Origin: an uncultured Bacilli bacterium
GTDB lineage: Bacteria > Bacillota_I > Bacilli_A > RFN20 > CAG-826
DNA: 49,193 nucleotides
Reading direction: 5' to 3'
Assembly: GCA_944349405.1 (NCBI GenBank)
Contig: CALVMY010000099.1
Coordinates: 1-49,193, forward strand
The notes beneath the pieces were generated by a model that ran no database searches, was not told the DNA's origin, and worked only from the letters and a program-made list of their open reading frames with translations. The first letter of the stretch is position 1. Each line of letters opens with the position of its first letter. Below, piece by piece: positions 27,223 through 43,876 of the stretch. The position numbers were made by a program, and so were the translations under genes.

Positions 27223-27252
27223 ATTTTTTATATATTAATATCTATATTTTAC

Positions 27253-27903: not shown

Positions 27904-29389
27904 CGTTTTCCTCAGTTATTGAAATCTCTTTTACATCATTTTCTTCATTATAGTTTTTATACCATAAAAGTCTATTTTTCTTGATATAGAAATTATTAAA
28001 AACCGCTAAAGCAACAATTAATAATCCTCCACCAATCATTATATAAGAAGTGATTTCACTAGTTGCATAATAATCAGCCTCTGTTCTTAAAGGCTCTAAA
28101 ATAGCTCTAGTTACTCCATACCAAATTAAATATCCACCTAAAAGTGAACCATCAGAATGATATTTTCCAAGCAATTTTCTTATTAAATATTCTAAGATAA
28201 AATAACCTGCTAAATTTGATAAGAATTCAACAAAGAATAAAGGAACATAGAATTTACCATTTTCTAAATAATAATGTAGGGCAGTTTCTCCAATTAACGA
28301 AACACCATCAACTTCAGTACTTAAAATTGATCCGTGTTGGAAATACATATTATTTTTTATCCATGTAGGTAAAAATTCCCAATAAGAAATATCAACTAAT
28401 TGACCATAAACTTCATTATTAAAGAAATTACCAATTCTTCCTAATGCTTGAGCAAATAATATTGAAGGGATAATAATATCAATTGCTTTTAATAAAGAAA
28501 AATTCTTATATTGGCTTCTTTTCATTCCATATTTAACAACTAAAACTTGGGCAACACCAGCAATTATACCTAAAACTGCTCCTCCCATAATTCCTAATCC
28601 GCCCATTCTAAAGTTAAATATATTTACCCAGTTAGCACCAGCAAAATCAGTTGATCCACTACTTACACTTAAAATAACATACCAAATTCTTGCTCCAATT
28701 ACTCCTGAAGGGAAAGCAATTAAAAATGTATTTGTAATTAAATCATGCTTACCATAAATCTTATATAATTTATAATCACAAACATATAAGACTAAACAAG
28801 CACCAGATAAAATAAATAATGCGTATAAATAAATAGTTAAACCATCAGTATAATTATCATAATATTTATAAATATTGACTAATTTAATTCCTTTTGCACC
28901 AATATAGATCGCATTTGCTAAAGGATATTCTAAATAAGGAGCATTACCTTCTCCCCATAAAAAGAAAAATACTATTGTTAAGGCTAAAGAAAAACCTAGT
29001 GCCATAGTCGTATATTTTCTTTTTATCTCAAATTTTTCGATATATAACTTAATAAATAAAGAATAAATAAATGCCATTAAAGAGATAGCAAATAATATAC
29101 CAAATAAATAGACCATTACTTGGTGGTACCATTTTAAAGTTATATTATTAGTTTCTAAATAAATAGATGTATTTGGATCTAAATAGAATGCTAAATTTAA
29201 TAAAACAAAACCAAGAATAAAAGCAAGGGTAGGTATTCCTAGTTTTATTAAATTTTTCTTTATTAAATCGATAAATGATTCATATTTTGATTCATTTTTC
29301 TTAATAAAATATAAAAATACGATGCTAGTGATTAGTCCTCCAAATGTAAGAACTAATCCGATATAATAAGTAATCTCATATCCAATCAT
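27896..29389 (-). CDS. lgt: Phosphatidylglycerol-prolipoprotein diacylglyceryl transferase with a long N-terminal membrane extension
   Basis: Signature LGRIGNFFNNEVYG (Lgt G-R-x-G-N-F-x-N-x-E-x-x-G). 497 aa, versus about 270-290 for typical Lgt. Confidence 0.8.
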   Translation of the reverse strand: MIGYEITYYIGLVLTFGGLITSIVFLYFIKKNESKYESFIDLIKKNLIKLGIPTLAFILGFVLLNLAFYLDPNTSIYLETNNITLKWYHQVMVYLFGILFAISLMAFIYSLFIKLYIEKFEIKRKYTTMALGFSLALTIVFFFLWGEGNAPYLEYPLANAIYIGAKGIKLVNIYKYYDNYTDGLTIYLYALFILSGACLVLYVCDYKLYKIYGKHDLITNTFLIAFPSGVIGARIWYVILSVSSGSTDFAGANWVNIFNFRMGGLGIMGGAVLGIIAGVAQVLVVKYGMKRSQYKNFSLLKAIDIIIPSILFAQALGRIGNFFNNEVYGQLVDISYWEFLPTWIKNNMYFQHGSILSTEVDGVSLIGETALHYYLENGKFYVPLFFVEFLSNLAGYFILEYLIRKLLGKYHSDGSLLGGYLIWYGVTRAILEPLRTEADYYATSEITSYIMIGGGLLIVALAVFNNFYIKKNRLLWYKNYNEENDVKEISITEENDD

Positions 29390-29424
29390 AACTTATTTTC
29401 CCCTTTAAAATAATTTTAATATAA

Positions 29425-32265
29425 CTACACTTCTTTGTCTTTTTCTAATATAGGTTTTAAATACTCTCCAGTATAAGAAACTTTACTTTTTATAATTTCT
29501 TCAGGAGTTCCCTTAGCGATAATTTTTCCTCCCTTATCTCCTCCATCTGGACCAAGATCAATAATATAGTCAGCCATTTTTATAACATCTAAATTATGTT
29601 CAATAACTAAGACTGTATCGCCATTATCAACAATTCCTTCTAAAACTTTTAATAATCTAGCAACGTCATCAGTATGTAAGCCAGTTGTAGGTTCATCTAA
29701 AATATATAAAGTTTTTCCTGTAGGCTTTTTCTCTAAATAATAAGCTAGTTTAACTCTTTGAGCTTCACCTCCAGATAAAGTTACTGCACTTTGACCAAGT
29801 TTAATATAGCCAAGGCCAACATCACATAAAGTTTTAAGTTTTATAGCAAGTTGAGAATGATTTTTAAAGAAGTTATAAGCTTCTTCAGCCCTCATTTCCA
29901 AAACATCATAAATATTTTTCCCTTTATATAAACAAGAAAGAGTTTCGGCGTTATATCTTTTTCCATCGCATTCATCACATTTAACATAAACATCAGGTAA
30001 AAAGTTCATTGGAATGCGTGTAACTCCAGCCCCTTGACAATGTTCGCACCTTCCTCCAGGAAGATTAAAAGAGAAGCGTGATTTATTAAATCCGCGAGCT
30101 TTTGCTTCAACAGTTTGAGCAAAAATATCTCTAATATCATCAAATGCTTTGATATAGGTTGCAGGATTAGAACGAGGTGTTTTACCAATTGGTTCTTGAG
30201 AAATATTAATTACTTTATCAATATTTTCTACACCTAAAAGTTCTTTATATGGGCCTGGATAAGTTTCCACGTGTGAAATTTCTTTGTAAACTGCTCGATA
30301 GAGTGTTTCATTAATTAAAGACGATTTCCCACTTCCACTAACTCCGGTAACACATACAAAACAACCTAGAGGAACTTTTATATCTACGTTTTTTAAGTTA
30401 TTTAAAGTTGCTCCTTTAAGTTCAACAAATTTACCGTTTCCTTTTCTTCTATTTTTAGGAACATAAATTTTCTTTCTTCCAGAAAGATAGGCTCCTGTAA
30501 TTGAATCTTTATTATTTTCGATTTTTTCTAAACTTCCAGCTTCAACAACTTCTCCTCCATGAACACCAGCTCCAGGGCCAATATCTACGATAAAATCCGC
30601 AGATTTTAGCATTCCGTCATCGTGTTCTACAGCAATTAAGGTGTTTCCTAAATCTCTCATCTCTTTTAAAGAAGCAATGAGTTTAGCACTATCTTTTTGA
30701 TGTAAACCAATTGAAGGCTCATCTAAAACATATAAAACCCCACTAAGTTTTGATCCAATTTGGGTAGCTAATCTAATTCTTTGAGCTTCTCCCCCAGAAA
30801 GAGTCATTGCATATCTAGATAAAGTTAAATATTCTAAGCCAACATCAATTAAAAATTGGCTCCTATTTAAAATTTCATTGATAACTAAGTTTGCAATATT
30901 TAATTCATATTCGCTTAATTTTGTTTTTAAAGATAAAATCCACTCGTGTAATTTATCTAAAGTTAAACAGCAAACATCATAGATATTTTTTCCATCAACT
31001 AAAACGCTTAAAACTTCTTCGTTAAGTCTAGCGCCATGACATTCGCTACAAATTCTATCTTTTAAAAATTTAGCATAATATGCTCGATTAAATTCAGAAG
31101 TTGTTTCATTATAAAGTCGCTCAATTCTTTCTTTTACACCTTCAATATGGCCGTTTTTCTTTGAAACATTACCGCTAACTGAAGTTAAAGTATAAGAAAT
31201 ACTTTCTTTTGATCCATTTAAAATAATATCAACTTGTTCTTTTGTTAAATCTTTAAAAGGTATATTTGTAGGGATTTTATAATAATCTAAAAGCGCCTTA
31301 AATCCGAGCCAATCTAAATTTGTGGTATTAACAGTGTTTTTATAATAAAGAATGGCCCCTTGATTGATTGTTAAGTTTGGATCTGGAACTAATAAATCTA
31401 AAGAAACTTCTTGTTTTATTCCTAATCCATTACAAGAAGGGCAGCATCCTAAAGGATTATTAAAAGAAAATAATCGAGGTTCAAGTTTAGGAATTGTAAA
31501 ACCACAAATTGGACAAGCATTTTTTTCACTATATAATTTTTCAACGCCATTTATATCGACACTTACAAAGCCATTTGACCAGTTAGTAGCAAGTTCGACA
31601 TCTTCAAAAAGTCTCGAATCTATGCCATCTTTTCTTACAATTCTATCAATGACAATATCAATGTTATGCTTATTATTTTTAGCTAGTTCTCCGACTTCTT
31701 CAATTCTTTTTATTTCCCCATCAACCCTAACTCTAATAAAACCATTTTTGGCAATTTTTTCTAAAATAGCTTTTTGAGTTCCTTTTTCGTTTTTAACAAT
31801 TGGTGAAAAAATAATTATTTTACTACCATTTTCACTTTTTAAAATAATATCTACAATTTTAGTAATTGAAAAAGCAACTATTGGTTCATGATGGTGTGGA
31901 CAATAAGGTATTCCAATTCTAGAAAATAATAATCTTAAATAATCATAGATTTCAGTAACTGTTCCAACTGTTGAACGAGGATTATGGGAAGTCGATTTTT
32001 GATCAATTGAAATAGAAGGAGATAATCCCTCGATTGATTCAACATCAGGTTTTTCATAATTACCTAAAAATTGTCGGGCATATGATGATAATGATTCAAC
32101 ATATCTTCTTTGACCTTCAGCAAAAATAGTATCAAAAGCAAGAGTCGATTTGCCACTTCCACTAACTCCTGTAAAAACTATTAATTTATTTTTAGGTAAA
32201 GTTAAATCTATATTTTTAAGGTTGTTTTCTTTAGCACATTTAATCTTAATTTCGTCGTTTTGCAT
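29425..32265 (-). CDS. uvrA: Excinuclease ABC subunit A
   Basis: 946 aa with two ABC modules (GVSGSGKS twice, LSGGEAQR twice) and zinc-finger CxxC pairs. Confidence 0.95.
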   Translation of the reverse strand: MQNDEIKIKCAKENNLKNIDLTLPKNKLIVFTGVSGSGKSTLAFDTIFAEGQRRYVESLSSYARQFLGNYEKPDVESIEGLSPSISIDQKSTSHNPRSTVGTVTEIYDYLRLLFSRIGIPYCPHHHEPIVAFSITKIVDIILKSENGSKIIIFSPIVKNEKGTQKAILEKIAKNGFIRVRVDGEIKRIEEVGELAKNNKHNIDIVIDRIVRKDGIDSRLFEDVELATNWSNGFVSVDINGVEKLYSEKNACPICGFTIPKLEPRLFSFNNPLGCCPSCNGLGIKQEVSLDLLVPDPNLTINQGAILYYKNTVNTTNLDWLGFKALLDYYKIPTNIPFKDLTKEQVDIILNGSKESISYTLTSVSGNVSKKNGHIEGVKERIERLYNETTSEFNRAYYAKFLKDRICSECHGARLNEEVLSVLVDGKNIYDVCCLTLDKLHEWILSLKTKLSEYELNIANLVINEILNRSQFLIDVGLEYLTLSRYAMTLSGGEAQRIRLATQIGSKLSGVLYVLDEPSIGLHQKDSAKLIASLKEMRDLGNTLIAVEHDDGMLKSADFIVDIGPGAGVHGGEVVEAGSLEKIENNKDSITGAYLSGRKKIYVPKNRRKGNGKFVELKGATLNNLKNVDIKVPLGCFVCVTGVSGSGKSSLINETLYRAVYKEISHVETYPGPYKELLGVENIDKVINISQEPIGKTPRSNPATYIKAFDDIRDIFAQTVEAKARGFNKSRFSFNLPGGRCEHCQGAGVTRIPMNFLPDVYVKCDECDGKRYNAETLSCLYKGKNIYDVLEMRAEEAYNFFKNHSQLAIKLKTLCDVGLGYIKLGQSAVTLSGGEAQRVKLAYYLEKKPTGKTLYILDEPTTGLHTDDVARLLKVLEGIVDNGDTVLVIEHNLDVIKMADYIIDLGPDGGDKGGKIIAKGTPEEIIKSKVSYTGEYLKPILEKDKEV

Positions 32266-32310
32266 ACTCTTTAAAATTATACATTTTTTTATCTCTTTTA
32301 AAAGTAATAC

Positions 32311-32338
32311 GAATATAAAATAATACTATTTTATATTC
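32311..32338 (-). terminator. Perfect 12-bp hairpin between the GT28 gene and uvrA (possible terminator or attenuator)
   Basis: GAATATAAAATA-ATAC-TATTTTATATTC. All pairs are A-T except the terminal G-C, and there is no strong T tract, so function is uncertain. Confidence 0.35.
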
Positions 32339-32376
32339 ATTAGATTAGCAAAAAGAGCTTATATAGCTCATATCAT

Positions 32377-33468
32377 TTATAGATTTTTTAGATTGTTTAT
32401 AATTGTTGTTGCAATATTTTTAGCCCCATCTAAATCAGGACAAAGTTTTTCTTTTTCGCTCATTTTTAAAAGAAGAGATGGTTCATCAATTAATATTTTT
32501 TTTAAAATTAAGAATAATTCTTTTGGTTTTTCAGCAACAAAAGCATATCCTCTAGAAGTAGCATAAATATAATTTAATTCTTCTTGTCCCAAAAGATGAC
32601 CAGTAAAAATAATTGGGATAGAAGCCGAAATAGCTTCAAACATTATATTTGGACCGGCTTTTGTTAAAATAATATCTCCTTGTCTAAGTCGATAATCCAT
32701 ATCATTTACATATCCAAAAATATTAACGCCATCTCGTTTTGTTAAATTTTTTTCTAAATATTTTTTAAGTTTTCCATCACTTCCTGTAATAATATCGATA
32801 TTAACATCAAAAGAATAAGCAACTTCAATAAGTTTTAAAGTTGTCTTTAAAGAACGTTGGCTTGGATTAACAAATATAAGTTTTTTTCTATCATTTTTTT
32901 CTTTTTTTACTTCAATATTTTTCTTAGACAAAGGAAATCCACATTGAATAAGAGTTTCCTCTTTAAATCCATCTTTTATAAAAATATCTTTTGTTTCTTT
33001 AACTGGTAAAAAATTTAAATCACTTCTTTTATCTCTCCATAAACTTGAATGTTTGACTGGATCAAGAACTACAACATAAAAAGGTATTCTTCTTTTTGTC
33101 TTTTTCAATACTTTAATAATAGAACCTACAAAACAGGGATGTAAAGAAACGATTAAATCAGGCTTATATTCATCTAAAAGTTTAAAGGTGTGATGCTTTA
33201 TTGCTTGATAAAGAAAATAATTCGATATTTTTCTAAAAAATGAGGAAAACTCAAAAAAGATTTTCCAAACCAAACGAAAACGAGTCGTTAAATTAATATA
33301 ACCTTGTTCTCCGCTACCTTCCTTATAACCTAAAAATAGTTTATTAGAATCATAATCATTTATATTCAAAGTCGGATCGATTTCGAGAAAAGCAGCTTTA
33401 ATAGCATTAGAGGCACTTCGATGGCCTCCGGTTTTACCCGCTGTTAAAAGAAGAATCTTTTTATCCAT
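32377..33468 (-). CDS. GT28-family glycolipid synthase (MGDG-synthase/UgtP-like diacylglycerol glycosyltransferase)
   Basis: N-terminus ILLLTAGKTGGHRSASNAIKAAF matches the MGDG_synth N-domain pattern (S-x-GGGH-x-x-AA-x-A-hydrophobic). 363 aa. Confidence 0.65.
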   Translation of the reverse strand: MDKKILLLTAGKTGGHRSASNAIKAAFLEIDPTLNINDYDSNKLFLGYKEGSGEQGYINLTTRFRLVWKIFFEFSSFFRKISNYFLYQAIKHHTFKLLDEYKPDLIVSLHPCFVGSIIKVLKKTKRRIPFYVVVLDPVKHSSLWRDKRSDLNFLPVKETKDIFIKDGFKEETLIQCGFPLSKKNIEVKKEKNDRKKLIFVNPSQRSLKTTLKLIEVAYSFDVNIDIITGSDGKLKKYLEKNLTKRDGVNIFGYVNDMDYRLRQGDIILTKAGPNIMFEAISASIPIIFTGHLLGQEELNYIYATSRGYAFVAEKPKELFLILKKILIDEPSLLLKMSEKEKLCPDLDGAKNIATTIINNLKNL

Positions 33469-33480
33469 TAAAGTCTCTAT

Positions 33481-33837
33481 TTATAACATGGCTCCTGAAG
33501 AAGCAGCTAAAACGATAATAATAATTTCGATAAGGTAAATAAATGCAAAAAGAGCAGATAAACCAACAGAAATCCATCCACAAATCATTCCAACAGTTGC
33601 AACATGATATTTATGATGTCTTTCGTTTAAAACTTTTTTTGCATTCTTCTCATTTTTTATTGCAAAAATTCCTAATATAAAGCCAAAAACAAGTGTTGAA
33701 AATAAAATGCTTAAGCAACCAAGAACTATTGAAACTACAGCGCTATTTTCGGCTTCAATAATTTCAGGAAGTGGTTTGTCGACAAAAACACGGTCGCCAT
33801 CTCTAACTTGGCCATTATAACTTTCAAATTCTTCCAT
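33481..33837 (-). CDS. Small membrane protein, DUF4190-like
   Basis: 118 aa with two hydrophobic hairpin segments (VVSIVLGCLSILFSTLVFGFILGIFAI ...). 12 nt upstream of the GT28 gene. Confidence 0.4.
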   Translation of the reverse strand: MEEFESYNGQVRDGDRVFVDKPLPEIIEAENSAVVSIVLGCLSILFSTLVFGFILGIFAIKNEKNAKKVLNERHHKYHVATVGMICGWISVGLSALFAFIYLIEIIIIVLAASSGAML

Positions 33838-33982
33838 AAATACCCCTCCGATATTAAGTGTTTATTGAATTTATTTTATTTTTTAATTTTCAAAATAATA
33901 AAATTTATTCTAAATAAATATTAATATAATTTTTATTTTTTAAAAATAATGTTATTAATTAAATACACAACTTTATTATAGT

Positions 33983-34942
33983 TTATTTGTTTAAAAATTC
34001 TTTAATCTTATTATCGTATTCTTCTAAATTCGAGGAGCGTACATGTGAATGTCTTCCGTGAGCAAAAAACACTAACTCGCTTAAAGGATTTTTAGAAGAG
34101 ATATAAAGTTTTTCACAAAGATTATGAGGCGAAAATATATCTTCTTCGCTATAAATTAAAAGAACAGGGCACTTCAAATTTTTTAATGTTTCAATTGGTT
34201 TATTATTAAAAAAACTAACTCCAGTATAAATTCTTGCTAAAAGAAAAGTTAAATGAAGCATTGGAAACGGTTTCTTTTTATAATGAATAAAATTTTGCTT
34301 AAACATTTCAAAGTATGTTGCAAATAAGCCTTCACCAACTATCTTTTTTACTTTGTCATATCCTTTTTCTTCTAATTTTTTAGTTGCAAATATAGCAGTT
34401 GCAGCACCAATACAAATCCCGTGAAAAACAAAACTTTCAATATTAAAACGTTTTTCAACATATTCCATCCATGCGATGATATCTTCACTTTCTTTTATTC
34501 CACCAGTTTGATATTTTCCATCACTTAAACCATGAGCACGTAAATCAACTACTAAGATGTTATATCCTTCTTCAGCATAAGGTTTTGCAAAATAATAACT
34601 ATAAAGAAGTGATTCCGTTCTTCCTTGCAAAATAATTGCACATTTTTTTGAACCAAAATCAATATATTCACCTTTTTGAAGCAATCCATCATGCGTTATT
34701 TCTAAAGGAATTCTTTTGTCATTATAAGAATTAGCCCAAGCAATTCCTTCTTTAAACATTTTAACTTGATCATCATCCTTTTTATTAGTGCATTCCCTTA
34801 TTCTCTTTTTTCTTGGGTTTCTATAAATGGTATTATAAAAAACTACGTGAGGAACAAGAATTAACATCACGAGAAGGTTAAATAAAATAAAGGCTGCAAT
34901 AACTATTAAAGTTATTTCCCGCCAACTCAATGGATTGCTCAT
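33983..34942 (-). CDS. Membrane-anchored alpha/beta-fold hydrolase with a Cys in the nucleophile elbow
   Basis: N-terminal TM and an alpha/beta hydrolase layout (ILQGRTES..., VVDLRAHGLSDG). The elbow reads HGICIGA (G-x-C-x-G) rather than G-x-S-x-G. Distal HGRHSH. Confidence 0.6.
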   Translation of the reverse strand: MSNPLSWREITLIVIAAFILFNLLVMLILVPHVVFYNTIYRNPRKKRIRECTNKKDDDQVKMFKEGIAWANSYNDKRIPLEITHDGLLQKGEYIDFGSKKCAIILQGRTESLLYSYYFAKPYAEEGYNILVVDLRAHGLSDGKYQTGGIKESEDIIAWMEYVEKRFNIESFVFHGICIGAATAIFATKKLEEKGYDKVKKIVGEGLFATYFEMFKQNFIHYKKKPFPMLHLTFLLARIYTGVSFFNNKPIETLKNLKCPVLLIYSEEDIFSPHNLCEKLYISSKNPLSELVFFAHGRHSHVRSSNLEEYDNKIKEFLNK

Positions 34943-35877
34943 AATTTTTTAATAATTCCGTTAAGAACCTCTTTTTCGTAACTTAAATCAGTAATTTTAC
35001 CTCCAAAATAGAAGGCAACATATAGTCCTGGACCACAATTTATACCAGTGTTAGGATAAATATTTGAAACAATTACTTCGCGTGGGCCGATTTCTTTCCT
35101 AATCATATCAGCAACGATTTCGGCTTGTTTTCTACGTAAAGTTTGAGAAACTAAAATGACTTGTTCTTTTGGATTTTTGATAGTTTTTTTAATATATTCG
35201 ATAACAACTTTATAAGTTTTATCAATTCCATTAACTTTTCCTAAAGGAGTAACCATCCCTTCCGAACTAAAATCTCCTAATGGTTTAATACCAAAAATAT
35301 TACCGAAAAATGCTTTAGCATTACTGATTCTGCCTTTACTTGCAACCCGGTTAAGATCATCAATAGGCCCCATTTGATGGAGACATTCTCTTTCTTGCTC
35401 TAAAAGTTTATAGTTCTCTTCAATACTTAATCCTTCATCACGATGTTTAGAAGCAACAATTGCAATACTACCAACCCCTAAAGAATAACGACGAGAATCA
35501 AGAACAAGAATTTTCCTAGATGGATATTCTTCCATTAATTCCTTGGCAGCTTGATTAGCAATTTTATAAACAGCACTTAAAGCACTAGAAATAGTAACAA
35601 CAAGAATATCTAATCCTTTTTCAATCCATAACCTCATTCTTTCTTTAGTTTTTTCTAGCCCAATCGCAGCTGTTTTATATCCATTAGGATTTGCTTTTAA
35701 TTTTTTATAAAAATCATCAAAAAAAGCATCATCTTCTTCTTCAAGATTACCTTCCATATTTTCTTGTTCAGGAGTTGAAATTACTCCACGAAGATAATCA
35801 TCAATTTTAAAACGTTTGCGAAGTTCTGGAGAAAGATCGCTTGTTGAATCAGTAAGAATTGCATAACTAAAATCCAT
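34939..35877 (-). CDS. DegV-family fatty-acid-binding protein (FakB-like)
   Basis: Starts AILTDSTSDLSPE (the DegV T-D-S-x-x-D signature) and is 312 aa. A 4-nt overlap couples it to the downstream hydrolase. Confidence 0.75.
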   Translation of the reverse strand: MDFSYAILTDSTSDLSPELRKRFKIDDYLRGVISTPEQENMEGNLEEEDDAFFDDFYKKLKANPNGYKTAAIGLEKTKERMRLWIEKGLDILVVTISSALSAVYKIANQAAKELMEEYPSRKILVLDSRRYSLGVGSIAIVASKHRDEGLSIEENYKLLEQERECLHQMGPIDDLNRVASKGRISNAKAFFGNIFGIKPLGDFSSEGMVTPLGKVNGIDKTYKVVIEYIKKTIKNPKEQVILVSQTLRRKQAEIVADMIRKEIGPREVIVSNIYPNTGINCGPGLYVAFYFGGKITDLSYEKEVLNGIIKKL

Positions 35878-35888
35878 ATTTTACCCCC

Positions 35889-36863
35889 TTAAATTTTTAA
35901 AGTTACACGATTAACATAGTCTAAACAATTATTATCTTTTAAAGAATAATTTTTTTGACCTAATGTTTCATTAATATATTTTGTAATTTCATCAATAGAA
36001 CGAGTTTTAATTCGTTTTGATAAAATTCTTACTTCAGGAATTTGTCCTGCGGCAAATGATGTTAATGTTGTAATATGCACATCGACTACTTCATTTGCTT
36101 TATTAATATAATGACCAAATTCAACGACTCTATCATCATCTAAATAAATTGCATAATGATGATAAAATCCTATATTTATTCTAATTACATCTCCTTTTTT
36201 AATCTCTTTATAACTGTAGCACATTTTAAATTTAGCTGCTTTTTCGCGTTTTAATTCATATAGTAATTTTAAACATTTATTTTTTATTTCTTCATTAGCA
36301 TTTATTAATTGATTACGAGAAGAATCGTTCTTCTTTAACATTGTTGGATAAATTGGTTTTCCAATTTTAAAATGAACCCTTTTAAAAATTCCATAGTTAA
36401 AATCCGAAATAACAGGGATTATAGGAGCGCCACTTTCTAAAGCAATCAAAAGGTATCCGTTTTTAAAATCGCCAAATTCAAAAAGTTTTTTATTAAAAAA
36501 ATAATCACCTTCAGGAAATACTAATAAACTTTTCTTTTTATTAAGTAAGGAACAACTTTTTACTATAAAATTATATTTTTCTCCTTTTAAATCAACTAAT
36601 ACGGCGCCTAAAAGAAGCATAAACGGTTTAAAAATTATTTGAAAACCATGATACCAATCAGCGGCTAAAAAATATAATCTTCGAAAGAAAAATAAATAGG
36701 CTATCGCAAGAGGATTTAATCCGCTTTTATGATTAGAAACAATTATAGCTCCTTTAGGGAGCTTAAATTTTTTTCCTCCTTCATAACTTATTTTGAATTT
36801 AAAAAAGAGTAGGGCAATAGGCAAACCAATTATAAGAGCTAAATAGTACATTATAGTTTTCAT
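35889..36863 (-). CDS. Fusion of a PlsC-type (lysophospholipid) acyltransferase with a C-terminal LRAT/PLAAT (NlpC/P60-like) Cys-His domain
   Basis: N-terminal TM, then acyltransferase blocks VSNHKSGLNP (H-x4-N), FPEG and APIIPV. The C-terminal ~110 aa carry GDVI...YHHYAIYL..VVEFGH and NNCLDYV, the His-box/NC-motif pair of LRAT-family enzymes. Confidence 0.6.
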   Translation of the reverse strand: MKTIMYYLALIIGLPIALLFFKFKISYEGGKKFKLPKGAIIVSNHKSGLNPLAIAYLFFFRRLYFLAADWYHGFQIIFKPFMLLLGAVLVDLKGEKYNFIVKSCSLLNKKKSLLVFPEGDYFFNKKLFEFGDFKNGYLLIALESGAPIIPVISDFNYGIFKRVHFKIGKPIYPTMLKKNDSSRNQLINANEEIKNKCLKLLYELKREKAAKFKMCYSYKEIKKGDVIRINIGFYHHYAIYLDDDRVVEFGHYINKANEVVDVHITTLTSFAAGQIPEVRILSKRIKTRSIDEITKYINETLGQKNYSLKDNNCLDYVNRVTLKI

Positions 36864-38773
36864 TGTTTGTTCCTAATTTTATTATAAAAATCTTCTGGAG
36901 TTCTTAAAGAGTCTTCTTTTTCAAGATTAATAGTAATATCAAAGGTTTTTTCTATACTTACAAGTAAAGACATGTATCCTAATGAATCGCCACCTAAATC
37001 AATAAAATAATCACTATCTTTTTTTATATTACTAATTTCTTTCCCTAGACTTGCCTTAAATAAGTCTTCGATTAAAAGTAAAGTCTCATCTTCTTTAGTT
37101 TTATTTATCGTTTCTTTTTTTATATTATTTAGTGAGAAAAAATGAATTTTATCTTCTTTTATAGCTTTTCTTAATTGAGCACGAGACATTTTTATAGCTT
37201 CATGATTTGTAATATCATCATAAGTTAATAAAATGTCATTTACATTATTTCCGTATTTAATTTTAGATAATAAAGGTCCGATTGAGTCTACTTCTTTTTC
37301 TATTAATAAATGAGGAGTGTCTTTTTTATATTGAATTATTAAAGAGAGTTTCCCTTTTAATTCAAGAACGGAAAAAGATTCAGCTAAAGACAAATTAATC
37401 TCTTTTTCTATAAGGTCAGGAGAAATATTTTCCCCGTTTTCTCCAATAAATAAATCGTCTTTTCTTCCTTTTATTAAATATTTTCCATTTTCATAAGAAA
37501 ATAAATCTTTTGTAAAAAATTTTTCTATTACTTCTTCTTTTCCATTTAAATAAATTATTCTTTTTGCTAAGCTAGTTCCTTCAATATATAAAATTCCGTC
37601 TTTATCAATACTATAAGAAACACTTGGAAAAGGCTCACCAACTGAACCGTCAATTCTATTAGAAAATTTAAGTGAAAGATTAGCTCCAGTAATTGATGCT
37701 TCTGTTGTTCCATAACCATTAAAAAGAGGATAGCCAATTCCGTTGATTATTTTTAAAACGTTAGAATCTATATAAGAGCCGCCCGAAATCATAAAACGTG
37801 GAGATTCTCCAAAAGCTTGAATTCTGACTTCTTTTAAAAGCAAACGTGATAATTTTAATGCTAAACGTGGAAAATAATCCCCTATTTTGGAAACTAAATT
37901 AATCGCTTTATTAAATGCTTTTTTCTTTTTTTCTCCAGCTGAATTTACTCCTTTTTTTATTCCTTCATAAAGTTTATTAAAAAGGAGGGGAGGAGCAAAA
38001 ATATGGGTAATTTCATGCCTAATTATTGTAGCGCGTATTGTTTCAGGTGATAAATCGTTAAAAAAAACGATAGTTCTATTAAAAAAAGCAAACCGTAAAT
38101 AAGAAACCATAATACCAAAAATATGAAAAAAAGGTAAAATTGCAGCCACCTTTATTCTCTTATGAAAATCTTCCATAAATAAAGGGTTTTTGGCAATAAT
38201 TTTATCGCTATTTAATATTTCTGAAGCAATTGAAGATCCTTCATATACAACTATTTTTGCTTCTAGACCAGTTAAACTTGAAGATAAAGCAAAAGTATTA
38301 GCCCAATTATTATTTTCTAGTTTTCCTTCAATATTATTTTTTAAAATTTCTTCAATATCTATTTTTATATAAGATTCAAAATCATTTGATAAAGTAATAA
38401 TTTTTTTAATATTTAATCTATCAAGCAACCTAATATTAAGATCTAAAGGATAATATCTATTTATTAAATAAGGGGAATATCCTGCCATCAAACTTCCCCA
38501 AAAAGCGATAATAAAAAACGGACCATTAGATAAGTCTATTCCGATATATTCATCCTTTGTCATTTTAAATGAACTTTTTAGATATAGTGCAAATTTTTCG
38601 ATTTCTTTTTCTACTTCTTCATATGTTTTACTTTCCATATCAAGATTGTTAAGTCTTTCATAAGCAATCATTTTTTTGCGACAAAAAACTATCGAATAAA
38701 TATCTTTTAATTCTTTTTTTGAATTTTCTAATAAATTCAAATTATATTTAACAGTAGCTCGATAGTTTTCCAT
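36860..38773 (-). CDS. Long-chain-fatty-acid-type adenylating enzyme fused to a C-terminal phosphopantetheine carrier domain
   Basis: ANL-superfamily cores LPFFHIFG, ISGGS, NGYGTTEAS and IKGRKDDLFIGENGENISP. The C-terminal IDLGGDSLGYMSLL is a PP-binding motif (the Ser is the 4'-PP attachment site). The P-loop core is divergent (SSSLTGLEAK). Confidence 0.7.
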   Translation of the reverse strand: MENYRATVKYNLNLLENSKKELKDIYSIVFCRKKMIAYERLNNLDMESKTYEEVEKEIEKFALYLKSSFKMTKDEYIGIDLSNGPFFIIAFWGSLMAGYSPYLINRYYPLDLNIRLLDRLNIKKIITLSNDFESYIKIDIEEILKNNIEGKLENNNWANTFALSSSLTGLEAKIVVYEGSSIASEILNSDKIIAKNPLFMEDFHKRIKVAAILPFFHIFGIMVSYLRFAFFNRTIVFFNDLSPETIRATIIRHEITHIFAPPLLFNKLYEGIKKGVNSAGEKKKKAFNKAINLVSKIGDYFPRLALKLSRLLLKEVRIQAFGESPRFMISGGSYIDSNVLKIINGIGYPLFNGYGTTEASITGANLSLKFSNRIDGSVGEPFPSVSYSIDKDGILYIEGTSLAKRIIYLNGKEEVIEKFFTKDLFSYENGKYLIKGRKDDLFIGENGENISPDLIEKEINLSLAESFSVLELKGKLSLIIQYKKDTPHLLIEKEVDSIGPLLSKIKYGNNVNDILLTYDDITNHEAIKMSRAQLRKAIKEDKIHFFSLNNIKKETINKTKEDETLLLIEDLFKASLGKEISNIKKDSDYFIDLGGDSLGYMSLLVSIEKTFDITINLEKEDSLRTPEDFYNKIRNKQ

Positions 38774-38779
38774 TATTAT

Positions 38780-40303
38780 CTACATAACCCCAATAATTAT
38801 GTGCGGTTTTTCTTGTCCTCCAGGAAAATAAGTGAATTCAACATCATCATTTTCTGTGAAAAATGAAGTAATTGTATCTACATCGTATTCATCAATTTCT
38901 TTTCCACCAAAAGCAACTACTGTTGAATATCCTTTAATTCGATTAGGTGATAAATAGCGTTCAAGTTGAGATCTTAAAGAAACATTTTTATCAATCTTAA
39001 ATTCAATCGTTTTTACTTTATTAACTATTTCGAGGTTCTTTTTAAAATCATTAAAAGTTCCATCAAACATTGAGGAGGCAATCTTGAAAAAAGTATTTAC
39101 TATTCCACGACATTCAACAACAACAAAGTTATTATAATGGCCCCGCCAAGCAATAGATTTAAGTTTATCTTCAATTTTTTTATCAGCACTAAAGAAAATT
39201 GTATTTTCTTTATAATATGGTTCGATTAGAGATTTTAATTCATCTTCACTAGGTTCATGACCGTGAGGAATTGTAAAACAAGCATCAGCTCCAATTTTTT
39301 CAAATAAAGAGGCAATTTGTTTTCCATAGGTAAAACAAACAACAGCATAGTCTGAATGTTTTCTTCTTTTTAATTGATTAAATTCTTGGGTTAAAAATAA
39401 ATCGTCTACTTTTGTTGTAACAATTGAACCAAATTTTTTAAAAATATTAATTACATTGTTTGGCCCATTAGTATGAATATGTACTTTTAATAAATTACCA
39501 TTTATTGCTAAAACTAGCGAATCTCCTCGCCCTTTTAAAAGATCAGAGTAGTATTCATAGTTATAATCGTCTTTAAGATTAATTGTAAATTCTGTGCAAT
39601 AACGAAAAAAAGTTAAAGGAGTATCTGAATTAGCATTTCTTTTTGGAAGAACACCACTCTCTTCACAATTAAAATAAGGATCATCTTCTTTAAAAGATTT
39701 TTTCATACCATCAACAACAAGATAAAATCCAAGCGCTCCACTATCAACAACATTGTTTGTTTTAAGAAGAGACATTTGAGAATTTGTTTTTAAAGTGCTT
39801 TCAAAAACACATTTGCTAAAAATTTCAAAAAATTTATCAAATGTTTGATTTTCAATATTTTTAAAGATTTCTAAGGACTTTTTTGCTCCTTCTCTCATAA
39901 CAGTTAGCATTGTTCCTTCGGCTGGATTTACTACTGCGGCATAAGCAATTTTATAAGCATGAACTATAGCGTTTTTAAAATCCTCAATGCTAATCGATTC
40001 TTTTCCTTTTAAATATTCGCTTAAACCAATAAAATATTGCGAAAGAATAAAACCACTATTCCCTCGACTATCTAAAGACATACTATGAGCAAATTTAAAG
40101 AGCAAATCTCCAGCGTTTTGTTTTTCGTCTGTAGCAACTAATCCTTTATGAAAAGATTGCTTCATGTTTGTTCCGGTATCACTATCACTTACTGGAAATG
40201 TATTAATATCATTTAAATAACTTTCATTATAAGATAGACTCGTAAAAGCCATTCTAAACATATGATAGAGGCTTGCTCCATCAATAACATTGTTTCTATT
40301 CAT
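38780..40303 (-). CDS. DAK2-domain fatty-acid kinase, FakA-like
   Basis: N-terminal DhaL/Dak2 motifs FPVSDSDTGTNM and DSRGNSGFILSQ. 507 aa, with a C-terminal region the size of the FakA DegV-like domain. Confidence 0.65.
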   Translation of the reverse strand: MNRNNVIDGASLYHMFRMAFTSLSYNESYLNDINTFPVSDSDTGTNMKQSFHKGLVATDEKQNAGDLLFKFAHSMSLDSRGNSGFILSQYFIGLSEYLKGKESISIEDFKNAIVHAYKIAYAAVVNPAEGTMLTVMREGAKKSLEIFKNIENQTFDKFFEIFSKCVFESTLKTNSQMSLLKTNNVVDSGALGFYLVVDGMKKSFKEDDPYFNCEESGVLPKRNANSDTPLTFFRYCTEFTINLKDDYNYEYYSDLLKGRGDSLVLAINGNLLKVHIHTNGPNNVINIFKKFGSIVTTKVDDLFLTQEFNQLKRRKHSDYAVVCFTYGKQIASLFEKIGADACFTIPHGHEPSEDELKSLIEPYYKENTIFFSADKKIEDKLKSIAWRGHYNNFVVVECRGIVNTFFKIASSMFDGTFNDFKKNLEIVNKVKTIEFKIDKNVSLRSQLERYLSPNRIKGYSTVVAFGGKEIDEYDVDTITSFFTENDDVEFTYFPGGQEKPHIIIGVM

Positions 40304-41096
40304 AACTTTTTATTCCTCTATTCTTATGAAATTTTTTATATTCTCTTTTTAATTGACCAAGCATATTAGCTCTTGCAAGAGTTTCAAAACACATTCCAAA
40401 AGCATGATCACCAAGTAAATGAACCATGCCCGAAGCAACTTTTACTCCAAGCATTTTTGCTTTGCTATGCCAAGTTGAACCATAATGATGTATAGATATA
40501 GTATTAGGAGTAATTTTTAATTCTTTGGTAATATAGTGTTTAGGAAAAAAGTATTCACGTGGAAGCAAAATAACATCATTATTAACGATTCTTTTTTTAC
40601 CATCAAGTTTTATATTATACAGTCTTTTTATCGAAGCAGAAAAATTTAAAACACATAACATGTTGCTTTTTCGATCTATTTTTTTACATGGTTTTTCATA
40701 GCGACTAAAAACTTCTTTCATAATTGGATGCCCTTTTTTAGAACCTAAAACAGCGCATCCGAACCAACAATTAGTTTCGTATCCAATAAAAAAAGAATAA
40801 TTATTTACTAACTCATTAAAACTTTTTAATAATTCAACATCAGTGTCTAAATATATTCCACCATAATTTAATAAAGCCCAACTTCTTATTACATCAGCGG
40901 CAATAGCGTAATTTTTTGCTTCAACAGCTTTTTTTACCCATTCATTAGAATTTATATCAAACGTTTTTTCATTCCGTTCATAAAATTTATAATCAGGAAG
41001 TAATTCTTTCCGCTTTTCAATAAATATTGCAAAACGTTCTGGTATTTTATTCCCTCCTAACCATACGTAATGTATGTTTTTTTCTATAAGTCCCAT
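40296..41096 (-). CDS. GT32-family (Gly_transf_sug, DXD) glycosyltransferase
   Basis: IHYVWLGG at the N-terminus, AADVIRSWALLNYGGIYLDTDVE (DXD motif). 266 aa; first gene of the operon. Confidence 0.7.
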   Translation of the reverse strand: MGLIEKNIHYVWLGGNKIPERFAIFIEKRKELLPDYKFYERNEKTFDINSNEWVKKAVEAKNYAIAADVIRSWALLNYGGIYLDTDVELLKSFNELVNNYSFFIGYETNCWFGCAVLGSKKGHPIMKEVFSRYEKPCKKIDRKSNMLCVLNFSASIKRLYNIKLDGKKRIVNNDVILLPREYFFPKHYITKELKITPNTISIHHYGSTWHSKAKMLGVKVASGMVHLLGDHAFGMCFETLARANMLGQLKREYKKFHKNRGIKSYE

Positions 41097-41567
41097 GGTA
41101 AAATGTTACAACCAAAAAGATTATTCTTCAACTTATATTTATTAATAAATCATTTATTAAATAGGTAATTTCTTTATTTTTTTACTTAATTTTATTTTCT
41201 TTCTTTTATAAAGATATTTTTAATCTCGGATTAAAAATATAATTATTTTATTAAATAATTAAGAAAATTGTCTTTTTTAATTAAAGATAAATATTATCCT
41301 ATATCATTAATAGGTATTAATACTTTTTTGCTATTTCATCATTTATCTCTATATAAGGATTAGATATAAAGAAAATATTTTTAATAGTTTATTAAGTTTC
41401 ATATTTTTAAGACTTCCTTTTTAAGAAACAATTATTAATCTTTATAATCTAAATTTAAAAAAATATTTTATTTACAATTGAAGAAATAATTAATCTATAG
41501 CTTATAGGAATAAATATCACTCTTTTGACATTAAAATGTTTCATATTGATTAAAAAAATATAATTTA

Positions 41568-41607
41568 CTTTATAAAAGAAAAGAAACGACTTTAAATGTC
41601 GTTTCTT
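41568..41607 (-). terminator. Rho-independent terminator of the alcohol dehydrogenase gene
   Basis: Perfect 10-bp stem 41581-41590 AAGAAACGAC with 41598-41607 GTCGTTTCTT and a 7-nt loop. The T-rich tail on the minus strand is TTCTTTTAT. Confidence 0.7.
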
Positions 41608-41632
41608 TTTAATTATAAATTATTTTATTTAA

Positions 41633-42817
41633 TTAGAATTTATAAGGAATGTTATAGTAGCAGCATTTGAAGAGCTCTTCCATAGTCTTATCATCGATAG
41701 GATTTGGATTAGTTCCTGTACATGCATCACCAACTGCTTCATGAGCAATGAATGATAATTTGCTTAAGAATTCATCTTCTTTAACACCGAATTCTTGCAT
41801 TGAATGTGGGATATTTAAAAGAGTATTTAATTCATGAATTCTATTGATTAATCCTTGTGTTTGTTCACGAGCATCATGTCCTTGAATACCTAATGCAGTT
41901 GCGATTTGAGCATATCTTTCAAGAGCAACTTTATTATTTGCATTGTATTCAATAACGTGTGGTAAATACATAGCATTAGCACAACCATGTGGAATATGAC
42001 CTGTTGAGAATGCAGCACCACTCTTGTGAGCCATTGAGTGGACAATACCAAGTAAAGCATTTGAGAATGCCATACCTGCTAAACATTGAGCATAGTGCAT
42101 TTCTTCTCTACCTTTTCCTTCTGGATTGTTATATGAATCAACAAGATATGTATTAACCATTTGAATTGCTTTTAATGATAAGCATTCTGTAAATGGTGTA
42201 GCGATTGTACCAACATATGATTCAACTGCGTGAGTTAAAGCATCCATTCCAGTATAAGCAACTTGGACTTTTGGTAAACCTCTAACGATATCTGGATCAA
42301 CAATAGCAACATCTGGGGTAATTTCGAAGTCTGCTAATGGATATTTAATACCTTTTGCATAATCAGTAATAACTGAGAAAGCTGTAACTTCTGTAGCTGT
42401 ACCACTTGTTGAAGGAATAGCACAGAATTTAGCTTTTGTTCTTAAGTGTGGGAAATTGAATGGAGTAACTAAATCTTCAAAAGTTGTATTTGGATATTCA
42501 TAGAATGCCCACATAGCTTTAGCTGCGTCAATTGGAGAACCACCGCCGATTGAAACAATCCAATCTGGTTCGAATTTTCTCATTGCTTCAGCGCCTTTCA
42601 TAACTGTTTCGATTGATGGATCTGGTTCGACGCCTTCGAATAATTCAACTTCAAAACCTGCTTCTTTTAAATAATTGACTGTTTTGTCTAAGAAACCACT
42701 AGCTCTCATTGAATGACCACCGGTAACAACGATAGCTCTTTTACCTCTGAGTGTCTTTAATTCTGCTAAAGAACCACTTCCGTAGTAAATGTCTCTTGGT
42801 AATGTAAATCTTGACAT
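41633..42817 (-). CDS. Iron-containing (group III) alcohol dehydrogenase
   Basis: 394 aa with GGGSPIDAAK, the metal-ligand His cluster (H-x3-H: HSMAHKSG ... HGCANA), and a strong RBS AGGAGG. Confidence 0.85.
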   Translation of the reverse strand: MSRFTLPRDIYYGSGSLAELKTLRGKRAIVVTGGHSMRASGFLDKTVNYLKEAGFEVELFEGVEPDPSIETVMKGAEAMRKFEPDWIVSIGGGSPIDAAKAMWAFYEYPNTTFEDLVTPFNFPHLRTKAKFCAIPSTSGTATEVTAFSVITDYAKGIKYPLADFEITPDVAIVDPDIVRGLPKVQVAYTGMDALTHAVESYVGTIATPFTECLSLKAIQMVNTYLVDSYNNPEGKGREEMHYAQCLAGMAFSNALLGIVHSMAHKSGAAFSTGHIPHGCANAMYLPHVIEYNANNKVALERYAQIATALGIQGHDAREQTQGLINRIHELNTLLNIPHSMQEFGVKEDEFLSKLSFIAHEAVGDACTGTNPNPIDDKTMEELFKCCYYNIPYKF

Positions 42818-42850
42818 AAATTCCTCCTATTTGTCTAAAATTACATACCT

Positions 42851-42878
42851 ATTCTAGCATTAATTTTTTGATTGTAAA
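42851..42878 (-). promoter_or_regulatory. Strong sigma-70 promoter of the alcohol dehydrogenase gene
   Basis: The minus strand reads TTTACA-N16-TAGAAT with an extended -10 TG (TGCTAGAAT). It is about 35 nt upstream of the RBS. Confidence 0.5.
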
Positions 42879-42885
42879 ATAAAAT

Positions 42886-42920
42886 CACAAAAAAATAAAA
42901 AAAGTGGCATTTCAGCCACT
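42886..42920 (-). terminator. Rho-independent terminator of the macro-domain gene
   Basis: Stem AGTGGC (42903-42908) with GCCACT (42915-42920) and a 6-nt loop, followed on the minus strand by TTTTTTTATTTTTTT. Confidence 0.65.
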
Positions 42921-42964
42921 AATTCGGATATTTTTTACCACAATTTTTATATTTTTAAGTTAAT

Positions 42965-43876
42965 TTAAAACAACTTTTTGGATAGAGTTTCTAAGTTATA
43001 AAAGAATAAACAGTCATTGATTTGGAAAACATCAAAAATATCCTTTTCGACAAAGTAACGAACAACAAGTTCATACATTGTGTTTTTGCCAAATACATAC
43101 CCTTGTTTTGCTAAAAAATTTCCTATTTCTTTAATTGGCAATTTTAAAGCGACTGCTAACGAAAGAAGCATATTTTTAGAAGGAATAAATGTTGATTCCT
43201 CAAATAATCTATCTAAATATCGATAATCCCAGTTAGCATTTACAATTAATTCATTTCTATCGATATTTTTCTCTTCAATTAATTTTTTTATTTCTTTTAC
43301 AATTTCTAAATTTGTATCTTTAATATCTTGTTTAGGATTTTTTGTTTCGAAGTGAGTATTAACATAATGGGATAAATTGTCTTTAAAATCATCATCAAAA
43401 ATATCAAATGGTTGTTTAAATAAAACAACATATATATCACTTTCGATATGAGATAATAAGTATTTAATAATCTCATCTTTTTCTATATCGTAGCATTCTC
43501 TTAAAGGATAATTAAAATCACTAGAAATAATAGGAAAAGCAGCGCTTTTAAAACCATTTTGATCCATAATTTTAAAAACATTTTTATAAGCACTTCTTAA
43601 TTTTTTTTCTTCGCCATGCTTCCCGTTTATATAATTAGGACCAACTGCATGAATTATAGCTTTACAGTTTGTAATGTTAAAAGAAGGGGTAATAACAGCG
43701 TGGCCGACATCACAATGACCAATCTGCCTACAAGCGGTTTGAAGTTCTAAATCGCCAGCACGATGAAAAATAGCTCTACTAACGCCTTCAACCATCTTGA
43801 GATTAACATTTGCATTAGCAACAATTGTGTCAACCTCCATATTCACTAAATCACCACGAATTAAATAAAAAGCCAT
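42965..43876 (-). CDS. Divergent macro-domain protein fused to a C-terminal HTH-like domain
   Basis: N-terminal macro pattern IRGDLVNMEVDTIVANAN...AIIHAVGPNY...AAFPIISS. The C-terminal ~100 aa (SKNMLLSLAVALKLPIKEIGNFL) resemble an XRE-type HTH. Confidence 0.65.
   Translation of the reverse strand: MAFYLIRGDLVNMEVDTIVANANVNLKMVEGVSRAIFHRAGDLELQTACRQIGHCDVGHAVITPSFNITNCKAIIHAVGPNYINGKHGEEKKLRSAYKNVFKIMDQNGFKSAAFPIISSDFNYPLRECYDIEKDEIIKYLLSHIESDIYVVLFKQPFDIFDDDFKDNLSHYVNTHFETKNPKQDIKDTNLEIVKEIKKLIEEKNIDRNELIVNANWDYRYLDRLFEESTFIPSKNMLLSLAVALKLPIKEIGNFLAKQGYVFGKNTMYELVVRYFVEKDIFDVFQINDCLFFYNLETLSKKLF

Follow-up and report, generated by a model that had tools for sequence, protein, structure and literature searches.

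A gene fusing two acyl-transfer domains

The window analysed here is a 49,193-nucleotide stretch of contig CALVMY010000099.1 (assembly GCA_944349405.1) from an uncultured bacterium of the Bacilli. It carries on the minus strand an eight-gene operon whose fourth gene, a single uninterrupted open reading frame (ORF) at 35889-36863, encodes a 324-amino-acid-residue protein in which a PlsC-type acyltransferase domain is fused to an LRAT/PLAAT-type Cys-His domain (Table 1; double colons denote fusion within one polypeptide). A sequence-only reading had placed such a fusion at exactly these coordinates, leaving out the strand. The motifs quoted in it were all found in the translation: NHKSGLNP (residues 44-51), FPEG (116-119), PIIPV (147-151), YHHYAIYL (234-241), VVEFGH (246-251) and NNCLDYV (311-317).

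Both domains scored above the Pfam cut-offs. PF01553 (Acyltransferase) matched residues 27-152 (E 3.6e-15, 56.4 bits against a cut-off of 23), and the C-terminal part, which the sequence-only reading had assigned to the LRAT family, was placed in PF04970 (LRAT) at residues 220-320 (E 9.5e-13, 48.9 bits against 24.3; 50.2 bits in a genome-wide profile search). An AlphaFold2 model computed from 29 orthologues (mean pLDDT 86.6, pTM 0.84) begins with an N-terminal helix (residues 2-20) and an alpha/beta domain, which a long charged helix (182-209) connects to a small beta-rich domain. When the two halves were compared with the Protein Data Bank (PDB) using Foldseek, the N-terminal half had the PlsC-like alpha/beta fold, with Thermotoga maritima PlsC as the top match (5kym, E 2e-7) and mycobacterial PatA next. 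The C-terminal half matched human PLAAT3/HRASLS3 (7zom, 4dot, 7c3z) with TM scores of 0.72-0.74 on the target, root-mean-square deviations of 3.6-3.9 A and about 25% identity. The fusion is thus real at the level of both profiles and predicted folds.

The transmembrane anchor noted earlier corresponds to the hydrophobic N-terminal helix of the model. Because a Lys cluster follows this helix, the positive-inside rule would place both catalytic domains in the cytoplasm.

Merging of two neighbouring genes by an assembly or frameshift error could be suspected, given that the source is a fragmented metagenome-assembled genome (116 contigs, 74% complete). We reject this explanation and leave it next to no chance: about 30 protein clusters, which come from independent assemblies, and 15 other genomes have the fusion as one ORF of 317-337 residues, and the model packs both domains together.

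A peptidoglycan hydrolase was also considered, because of an NlpC/P60 match, and was rejected. At 14.6 bits the match stays below its threshold of 23, the domain belongs to the permuted, lipid type, there is no signal peptide, and the gene lies in a lipid operon. Neither the fusion protein nor any operon neighbour reached an equivalog model of NCBIfam.

Table 1. Features of the fusion gene and its operon in the window.
Feature	Coordinates	Strand	Basis or remark
PlsC::LRAT fusion ORF (P0001), 324 aa	35889..36863	-	ORF list, translation, two Pfam domains above cut-off
N-terminal hydrophobic helix (residues 2-20), predicted membrane anchor	36804..36860	-	AlphaFold2 secondary structure
PlsC-type acyltransferase domain (PF01553, residues 27-152)	36408..36785	-	Pfam, Foldseek, alignment
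Codon of His45, block I catalytic histidine	36729..36731	-	Invariant in 29/29 orthologues
Codon 50, AAT (Asn), block I, private substitution; GAT (Asp) in all close relatives	36714..36716	-	Codon reading, cluster comparison
Long charged linker helix (residues 182-209) between PlsC and LRAT domains	36237..36320	-	AlphaFold2 model
LRAT/PLAAT-type circularly permuted NlpC/P60 domain (PF04970, residues 220-320)	35904..36206	-	Pfam, Foldseek, profile-PDB alignment
Codon of His236, aligned to PLAAT3 His23	36156..36158	-	Profile-to-PDB alignment; His in 27/29 orthologues
Codon of Glu248, aligned to PLAAT3 His35, likely third triad residue	36120..36122	-	Profile-to-PDB alignment
Codon of Cys313 in NNCLD, aligned to PLAAT3 Cys113 (acyl-enzyme nucleophile)	35925..35927	-	Alignment; invariant in 29/29
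DXD glycosyltransferase (Gly_transf_sug), operon gene 1	40296..41096	-	Profile search
FakA-like fatty acid kinase paralogue, divergent (Dak2 + FakA_M + FakA_C)	38780..40303	-	Profile search
Adenylate-forming enzyme::carrier (AMP-binding + PP-binding), 637 aa	36860..38773	-	Profile search, junction reading
DegV/FakB-like fatty-acid-binding protein, one of five in genome	34939..35877	-	Profile search
Membrane-anchored alpha/beta hydrolase, Cys at nucleophile elbow (HGICIG)	33983..34942	-	Profile search, alignment
Small DUF4190 membrane protein	33481..33837	-	Profile search
Monogalactosyldiacylglycerol (MGDG)-synthase/GT28-type glycosyltransferase, resembles diglucosyl-diacylglycerol synthase; last operon gene	32377..33468	-	Profile search
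Terminator-like hairpin after upstream iron alcohol dehydrogenase gene; upstream operon limit	41579..41609	-	Consensus scan only
Terminator-like hairpin after last operon gene	32355..32369	-	Consensus scan only

The PlsC domain and its acceptor blocks

The four acyltransferase blocks of the window protein read N-H45-KSGL-N50 (I), GAVLVDLKG, which has no Arg (II), FPEGDY (III) and PIIPV (IV). Pro-Glu-Gly 117-119 is present in all 29 orthologues aligned, as is His45. Across the fusion family the block II Arg is missing in 27 of 29 proteins and block III reads PEGD[YF] in 27 of 29. In contrast, all 14 non-fusion relatives aligned have the block II Arg, and ten of them have PEG[R/K] in block III. 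The basic residues that bind the acceptor phosphate in blocks II and III (xxR; EG-T/x-R) are therefore absent from the window protein, which has VDLKG and PEGDY in their place. The phosphate-acceptor pocket of glycerol-3-phosphate acyltransferase (GPAT) is formed by basic residues near HX4D (PMC4792965). Because the basic residues of both blocks are replaced in the fusion family, the acceptor of its PlsC domain is probably not lysophosphatidate. The fusion protein scored 48 bits with TIGR00530, whose cut-off is 103. That it is the sole housekeeping PlsC of its host was ruled out, since the genome encodes four other PF01553 proteins, including a 251-residue PlsC with HLSLLD beside AcpS.

The sequence-only reading had drawn attention to H-x4-N in block I, where the canonical dyad is H-x4-D, and had itself allowed that H-x4-D in orthologues would reduce the change to a private substitution or sequencing error. 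Asn50 is truly encoded in the window (cat aaa agc gga tta AAT cct), and this part of the claim stands. The alignment of orthologues, however, gave H-x4-D: column 50 holds Asp in 27, Glu in one and Asn in one of the 29 proteins. The other eight sequences of the 90%-identity cluster, which are 98-99% identical to the window protein, all read NHKSGLDP, and a single G-to-A transition separates AAT from the GAT of two near-identical loci of the same species. The dyad is thus a property of the fusion family that the window copy lacks. By these comparisons Asn50 is a private allele or a consensus error of one metagenome-assembled genome, and not a feature of the enzyme family.

If Asn50 is real, it probably lowers the activity of the PlsC half in this strain, because the carboxylate of the His-Asp charge relay is lost. 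The relay of the acyltransferases has been reviewed, and an Asp-to-Asn change would remove its charge (PMC4792965). The block I Asp-to-Ala mutant of PatA retained 37% activity (PMC4792965). That H-x4-N marks a PlsC domain retuned or inactivated as a family property would draw on the same two facts, real encoding and loss of the relay charge. It is refuted at family level, and we regard it as very improbable: Asp stands in the cluster members, in nearly all orthologues and in both same-species loci, with Glu in one orthologue, and the gene has no other lesion. It differs from the nearest strain by seven non-synonymous and four synonymous changes. With these 11 differences only, pN/pS was 0.44 (0.63 for the FakA-like neighbour), too few to show relaxed selection. 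Asn50 is thus a strain-level curiosity or assembly error, of use only as a natural hypomorph control.

The LRAT domain and its catalytic residues

The LRAT domain is circularly permuted, with the catalytic Cys near the C-terminus and after the His (His236, Cys313). Invariant or nearly invariant residues of the fusion family are His45, Pro-Glu-Gly 117-119, Cys313, Asp315, His236 and Asn311-Asn312. Column 248 is Glu in 17, Gln in ten, Asp in one and Asn in one of the 29 orthologues; it is polar, as elsewhere in NlpC/P60, and is His in PLAAT/LRAT. A triad of Cys313, His236 and Glu/Gln248 is likely, because Glu248 pairs with PLAAT3 His35, column 248 admits only Glu, Gln, Asp or Asn, and His251 is not conserved. 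The His box and NC motif described earlier therefore hold in YHHYAIYL (His236) and NNCLDYV (Cys313), but the His of VVEFGH does not, as position 251 varies among His, Arg, Asn, Tyr, Asp and Lys. Stand-alone LRAT relatives show the same residue pattern, and some have the textbook NCEHF motif.

The protein ends in ...NNCLDYVNRVTLKI, 11 residues past Cys313, and has no C-terminal hydrophobic membrane anchor. By family analogy, the LRAT domain may form an acyl-Cys intermediate and have phospholipase A or acyltransferase activity.

The operon and the host genome

The operon runs in the order glycosyltransferase, FakA-like protein, adenylase::carrier, PlsC::LRAT, DegV, Cys-hydrolase, DUF4190 protein and MGDG-synthase-like glycosyltransferase. 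The fusion gene overlaps the adenylase::carrier gene by four nucleotides (ATGA, start codon and preceding stop codon), with an AGGAA-like ribosome-binding site upstream. The window operon has neither an LplT-type lysolipid transporter gene of the major facilitator superfamily (MFS) nor a patatin gene.

In each of the 14 operon orthologues of the alpha/beta hydrolase, Cys takes the place of Ser at the nucleophile elbow (H-G-[ILV]-C-[IV]-G); a paralogue in locus L038 has Ser. The hydrolase Cys, Cys313 and the carrier thiol would thus give the operon three thiol acyl carriers.

No ketoacyl synthase was found in the host genome (74% complete), which encodes PlsX, PlsY, AcpP, AcpS, a canonical 574-residue FakA at another locus, five DegV proteins and the four other PF01553 proteins. 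On this gene content the host looks like a fatty-acid auxotroph. Because PlsY, PlsX, AcpP, AcpS, FakA and PF01553 proteins are encoded separately, the operon would be accessory.

Distribution of the fused form

At 90% identity the fusion family falls into about 30 clusters, and the representative genomes scanned yielded 15 fused loci. Synteny was compared in 16 loci from other genomes with GC contents of 27-61%, a very wide compositional range for one gene cluster. All eight genes occur in the same order in 6 of the 16 loci, the PlsC-type gene occurs in all of them, and four loci were too short to judge. Three termite-gut copies are reduced to the glycosyltransferase, adenylase::carrier, PlsC::LRAT and hydrolase genes. 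In a single case (L016) the locus consists of the glycosyltransferase, a PlsC-only protein ending just past the linker helix and the hydrolase, without the adenylase::carrier gene and the LRAT domain.

The gene order of the same-species locus is identical to that of the window. The operon was not found in four other genomes of the genus and was present in 2 of 40 genomes of the family (only one of them with the fused ORF), and the fused ORF was found in 2 of 399 genomes of the class sample. Its distribution is patchy. At E<=1e-3, only 210 among 1.84 billion representative proteins matched the LRAT domain, and only a handful of these combine PlsC and LRAT. The sequence-only reading had called the architecture unfamiliar, and these counts, together with a literature search that returned no account of it, agree.

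The termite-gut loci L008-L015, from metagenome-assembled genomes of 0.9-3.3 Mb, encode fusion proteins 54-84% identical to one another under records titled Treponema, Ca. Fibrimonas, Actinomycetes, Clostridiales and Oscillospiraceae. Record titles and this identity range, the two observations at hand, point either to horizontal movement of the operon between phyla or to faulty binning or labelling. In L001, L003, L005 and L012 the operon was found at 53-72% amino-acid identity (39-51% in L012), in loci of 56-61% GC against 27% in the window.

Against the same-species locus L051, synonymous divergence across positions 26236-43876 of the window was 0.01-0.04 in the lipid operon and in the adjacent alcohol dehydrogenase and macro genes. 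It was 0.10-0.13 in uvrA, lgt, HAD and whiA on the other side. This step looks like the boundary of a recombination tract or a recent sweep of the operon. A 222-residue protein from a 1.5-kb ENA contig (P0020) joins an unrelated 97-residue N-terminus to a linker helix and LRAT domain 98% identical to those of the window protein; a stand-alone form could have arisen here by recombination, or the assembly could be chimeric.

Unfused relatives and origin of the fusion

Among the matches to the LRAT domain, proteins of about 335 residues are common in which an N-terminal LRAT domain is fused to a 4'-phosphopantetheinyl transferase (PPTase; LRAT::ACPS). Further proteins with both PlsC and LRAT are P0166 and P0243, which belong to a different PlsC lineage, and P0188, which has the reverse order LRAT::PlsC::PlsC. 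Two of the nearest relatives of the domain, P0122 (1125 residues) and P0131 (637 residues), contain 11 and 5 tandem LRAT domains, respectively.

In other families of the same class the components occur as adjacent separate genes. L035, L036 and L040 contain FakA, patatin, MFS, PlsX, adenylase::carrier, PlsC::PlsC, acyl carrier protein (ACP) and LRAT genes. L037 contains FakA, a 190-residue ORF, adenylase::carrier, PlsC::PlsC and LRAT, and L038, L043, L045 and L048 contain adenylase, ACP and LRAT with or without the PPTase. The MFS transporter gene is present in the unfused relatives L036 and L038. In other genomes, stand-alone LRAT genes lie directly 3' of ACP genes. Coupling of the Cys enzyme to a carrier protein, an idea of the sequence-only reading, gained comparative support from the 4-nt overlap with the adenylase::carrier gene, from the ACP-LRAT adjacency and from the LRAT::PPTase fusions.

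Locus L049 (genome G078, same family as the window) contains adenylase, ACP, a PPTase-like ORF, DegV and hydrolase genes and no LRAT domain. Its PPTase-like ORF (205 residues) matches the C-terminal half of the LRAT::PPTase fusions, so the PPTase half also occurs alone in this module.

In a maximum-likelihood tree of PlsC domains, the N-terminal domains of the fusion family formed one clade (support 100/100), grouped with the first domains of the PlsC::PlsC proteins (96/99). P0166 and P0243 fell on the second-domain side on long branches, and the two PlsC parts of P0188 were split, one on each side. Because these positions differ, LRAT has been joined to PlsC at least three times. By this tree, the PlsC half of the fusion goes back to the first of the two domains in the PlsC::PlsC proteins that the unfused operon encodes in other Bacilli. 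The window architecture is best read as PlsC::PlsC, ACP and LRAT cut down by loss of the free ACP and of the second PlsC domain.

Proposed function

We favour, at about even confidence, a membrane-anchored, cytoplasm-facing lipid acyltransferase with two active sites, fed by a private carrier pathway for scavenged fatty acids. The adenylase would load a scavenged fatty acid onto its own carrier thiol. The PlsC domain, with His-Asp as general base, would then move the carrier-bound acyl group directly to a hydroxyl of the lipid acceptor, perhaps a neutral glyceride or glycolipid, which would fit the two glycosyltransferases of the operon. The LRAT domain would take a carrier-bound acyl group as a Cys313 thioester and hand it on to a second nucleophile of the same lipid, so that the fused protein would install two acyl chains through two chemistries.

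That the PlsC and LRAT domains act on the same lipid is suggested by their fusion in one protein (Rosetta-stone evidence). That the LRAT domain works with a PlsC module and a carrier protein is argued by the recurrence of these fusions and adjacencies. The main argument that the LRAT domain itself uses acyl-carrier is the existence of adenylase (ANL)-ACP-LRAT modules without any PlsC.

Several points weigh against this reading, above all against its last step. The acyl donor of the LRAT domain is inferred from gene neighbourhood alone. To our knowledge, all characterised LRAT/PLAAT enzymes draw their acyl group from a phospholipid O-ester, never from a carrier thioester. About half of the stand-alone LRAT loci sampled in the class have no adjacent carrier gene, and L039 lies in a non-lipid context. 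Tox-Act1, a characterised bacterial relative, is a phospholipase that cleaves phosphatidylglycerol (PG) and phosphatidylethanolamine (PE) (PMC12994826). The P-loop of the adenylase is non-canonical, though strictly conserved (A[IL]SS[ST]LTGLEAK), and T-N/K-D replaces TGD; fatty-acid adenylation is for this reason only putative. The other core motifs and the carrier Ser are retained. The general frame of the proposal is much firmer than the assignment of the acyl donor.

A Lands cycle is the strongest rival. The LRAT domain would deacylate or transacylate (phospholipase A1/A2-type) an existing or host diacyl lipid, and the PlsC domain would re-acylate the lysolipid from adenylase::carrier; fusion would then stop the escape of a detergent-like lysolipid. 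Phospholipase A1/2 activity and O-acyl transfer from phospholipid donors are documented PLAAT/LRAT chemistry, and the cleavage of PG and PE by Tox-Act1 conforms to it. The unfused operon L036 has a patatin-like phospholipase and an MFS transporter, which recalls the lysolipid recycling by LplT/Aas in E. coli, and the host seems to depend on outside lipids. The cycle nevertheless leaves unexplained why LRAT directly follows ACP, why ANL-ACP-LRAT modules occur without PlsC and why LRAT is fused to PPTase, and the window operon has no MFS or patatin gene. We consider it rather unlikely.

Carrier maintenance is a less probable role still. The LRAT domain would here be a hydrolytic thioesterase that edits or unloads the carrier, like a type II thioesterase, or frees the product, and there would be no second acyltransferase. 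Papain-like Cys-His enzymes do hydrolyse thioester intermediates with water as acceptor, a PPTase fusion is what one would expect of a carrier-maintenance enzyme, and the LRAT domain stands consistently beside ACP genes. However, the Cys alpha/beta hydrolase of the operon could itself serve that role. That LRAT has been fused to membrane acyltransferases repeatedly, and in three different arrangements, speaks for a reaction at the membrane on one shared lipid, and hydrophobic lipid-binding pockets are reported for permuted NlpC/P60 enzymes. On balance we find the thioesterase improbable.

Returning to the two-site acyltransferase, we put forward a bolder form of it tentatively, as a possibility that we hold well short of even. 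The LRAT domain would be the first LRAT/PLAAT enzyme to use an ACP-thioester donor (carrier-S-acyl to Cys313-S-acyl to lipid). Together with the fused PlsC domain, whose acceptor pocket has lost the arginines that bind phosphate, it would use fatty acids of the host to make a neutral lipid or glycolipid with several acyl chains, as yet undescribed, in fatty-acid-auxotrophic gut bacteria, and the whole operon would be horizontally mobile between gut phyla.

Small-genome gut Bacilli without fatty-acid synthesis build their membranes from host or dietary lipids, and their enzymes beyond FakA/FakB-PlsX-PlsY-PlsC are largely unknown. The fusion ties a PLAAT/LRAT relative and a PlsC domain to a private adenylase::carrier system and two glycosyltransferases. 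With four to eight genes, the locus offers compact, testable access to a route of lipid acylation that has yet to be characterised and whose unfused form is widespread among gut Firmicutes. The use of carrier-protein thioesters by LRAT-type Cys enzymes could be tested here as well.

Comparison with known systems

Both domains are known, and the fusion and the carrier-linked LRAT module are uncharacterised. A literature search returned no publication on the PlsC::LRAT fusion or the unfused operon and nothing relevant on bacterial LRAT with phosphopantetheinyl transferase. The locus adds a variant that is both fused and cut down, with altered acceptor blocks, neighbouring glycosyltransferases and a partner hydrolase that has a Cys nucleophile.

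By analogy, Aas/LplT of E. coli is the closest known system. There, free fatty acids enter membrane lipid through the joint action of a PlsC-type acyltransferase, an adenylate-forming acyl-ACP synthetase and a tightly bound carrier protein (PMC13170283). All three elements (PlsC-type enzyme, adenylase and carrier) are present in the window, and unfused relatives also have an adjacent MFS gene. Unlike Aas, which is PlsC::ANL, the window arranges them as ANL::CP followed with a 4-nt overlap by PlsC::LRAT, adds the LRAT domain and has no MFS gene. The NCBIfam equivalog model of Aas gave 26.6 bits against a cut-off of 1221.

Like the fusion protein, the ornithine-lipid synthase OlsF combines a PlsC-type O-acyltransferase with a second, unrelated acyltransferase domain and places two chains on one lipid. 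In OlsF that second domain is an N-acyltransferase of the GNAT type, where the fusion protein has LRAT. The match to the NCBIfam OlsF model was weak (E 0.0055, 15 against 620 bits) and covered the PlsC part only.

With PLAAT3/HRASLS3 and LRAT (4DOT, 7ZOM) the C-terminal domain shares the permuted papain-like fold, the His before the Cys, and the Cys in an N-C motif near the C-terminus. It differs from them in its likely third triad position, which is Glu/Gln and not His, and in having no C-terminal anchor, anchoring being through the PlsC half. Its genomic partners are carrier proteins; we know of no such partners for the animal PLAAT/LRAT enzymes. Among bacterial permuted papain-like Cys-His enzymes, LnsA (lipoprotein N-acylation in S. 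aureus), Lnb/DUF4105 and Tox-Act1 act on fatty-acyl linkages (PMC7387801, PMC12994826). They are secreted or periplasmic proteins of other clades (YiiX-like, DUF4105 and Tox-Act1), for which neither a carrier link nor a PlsC fusion is known.

For the N-terminal domain, T. maritima PlsC (5KYM) is the best structural and sequence match (residues 25-190). The two proteins share the N-terminal membrane helix, the block I His, the block III PEG and the block IV PxxPV. They differ in block II, where the fusion family has no Arg, in block III, where its PEG is followed by Asp-Tyr/Phe, and in that the window copy has Asn for the block I Asp. PatA (PDB 5F2Z), the second-best fold match at 12-15% identity, differs in using the block III Glu in its charge relay and palmitoyl-CoA as donor. 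Its acceptor is a sugar hydroxyl on a glycolipid (phosphatidylinositol mannoside, PIM), which makes this enzyme of PlsC fold a precedent for a non-phosphate acceptor.

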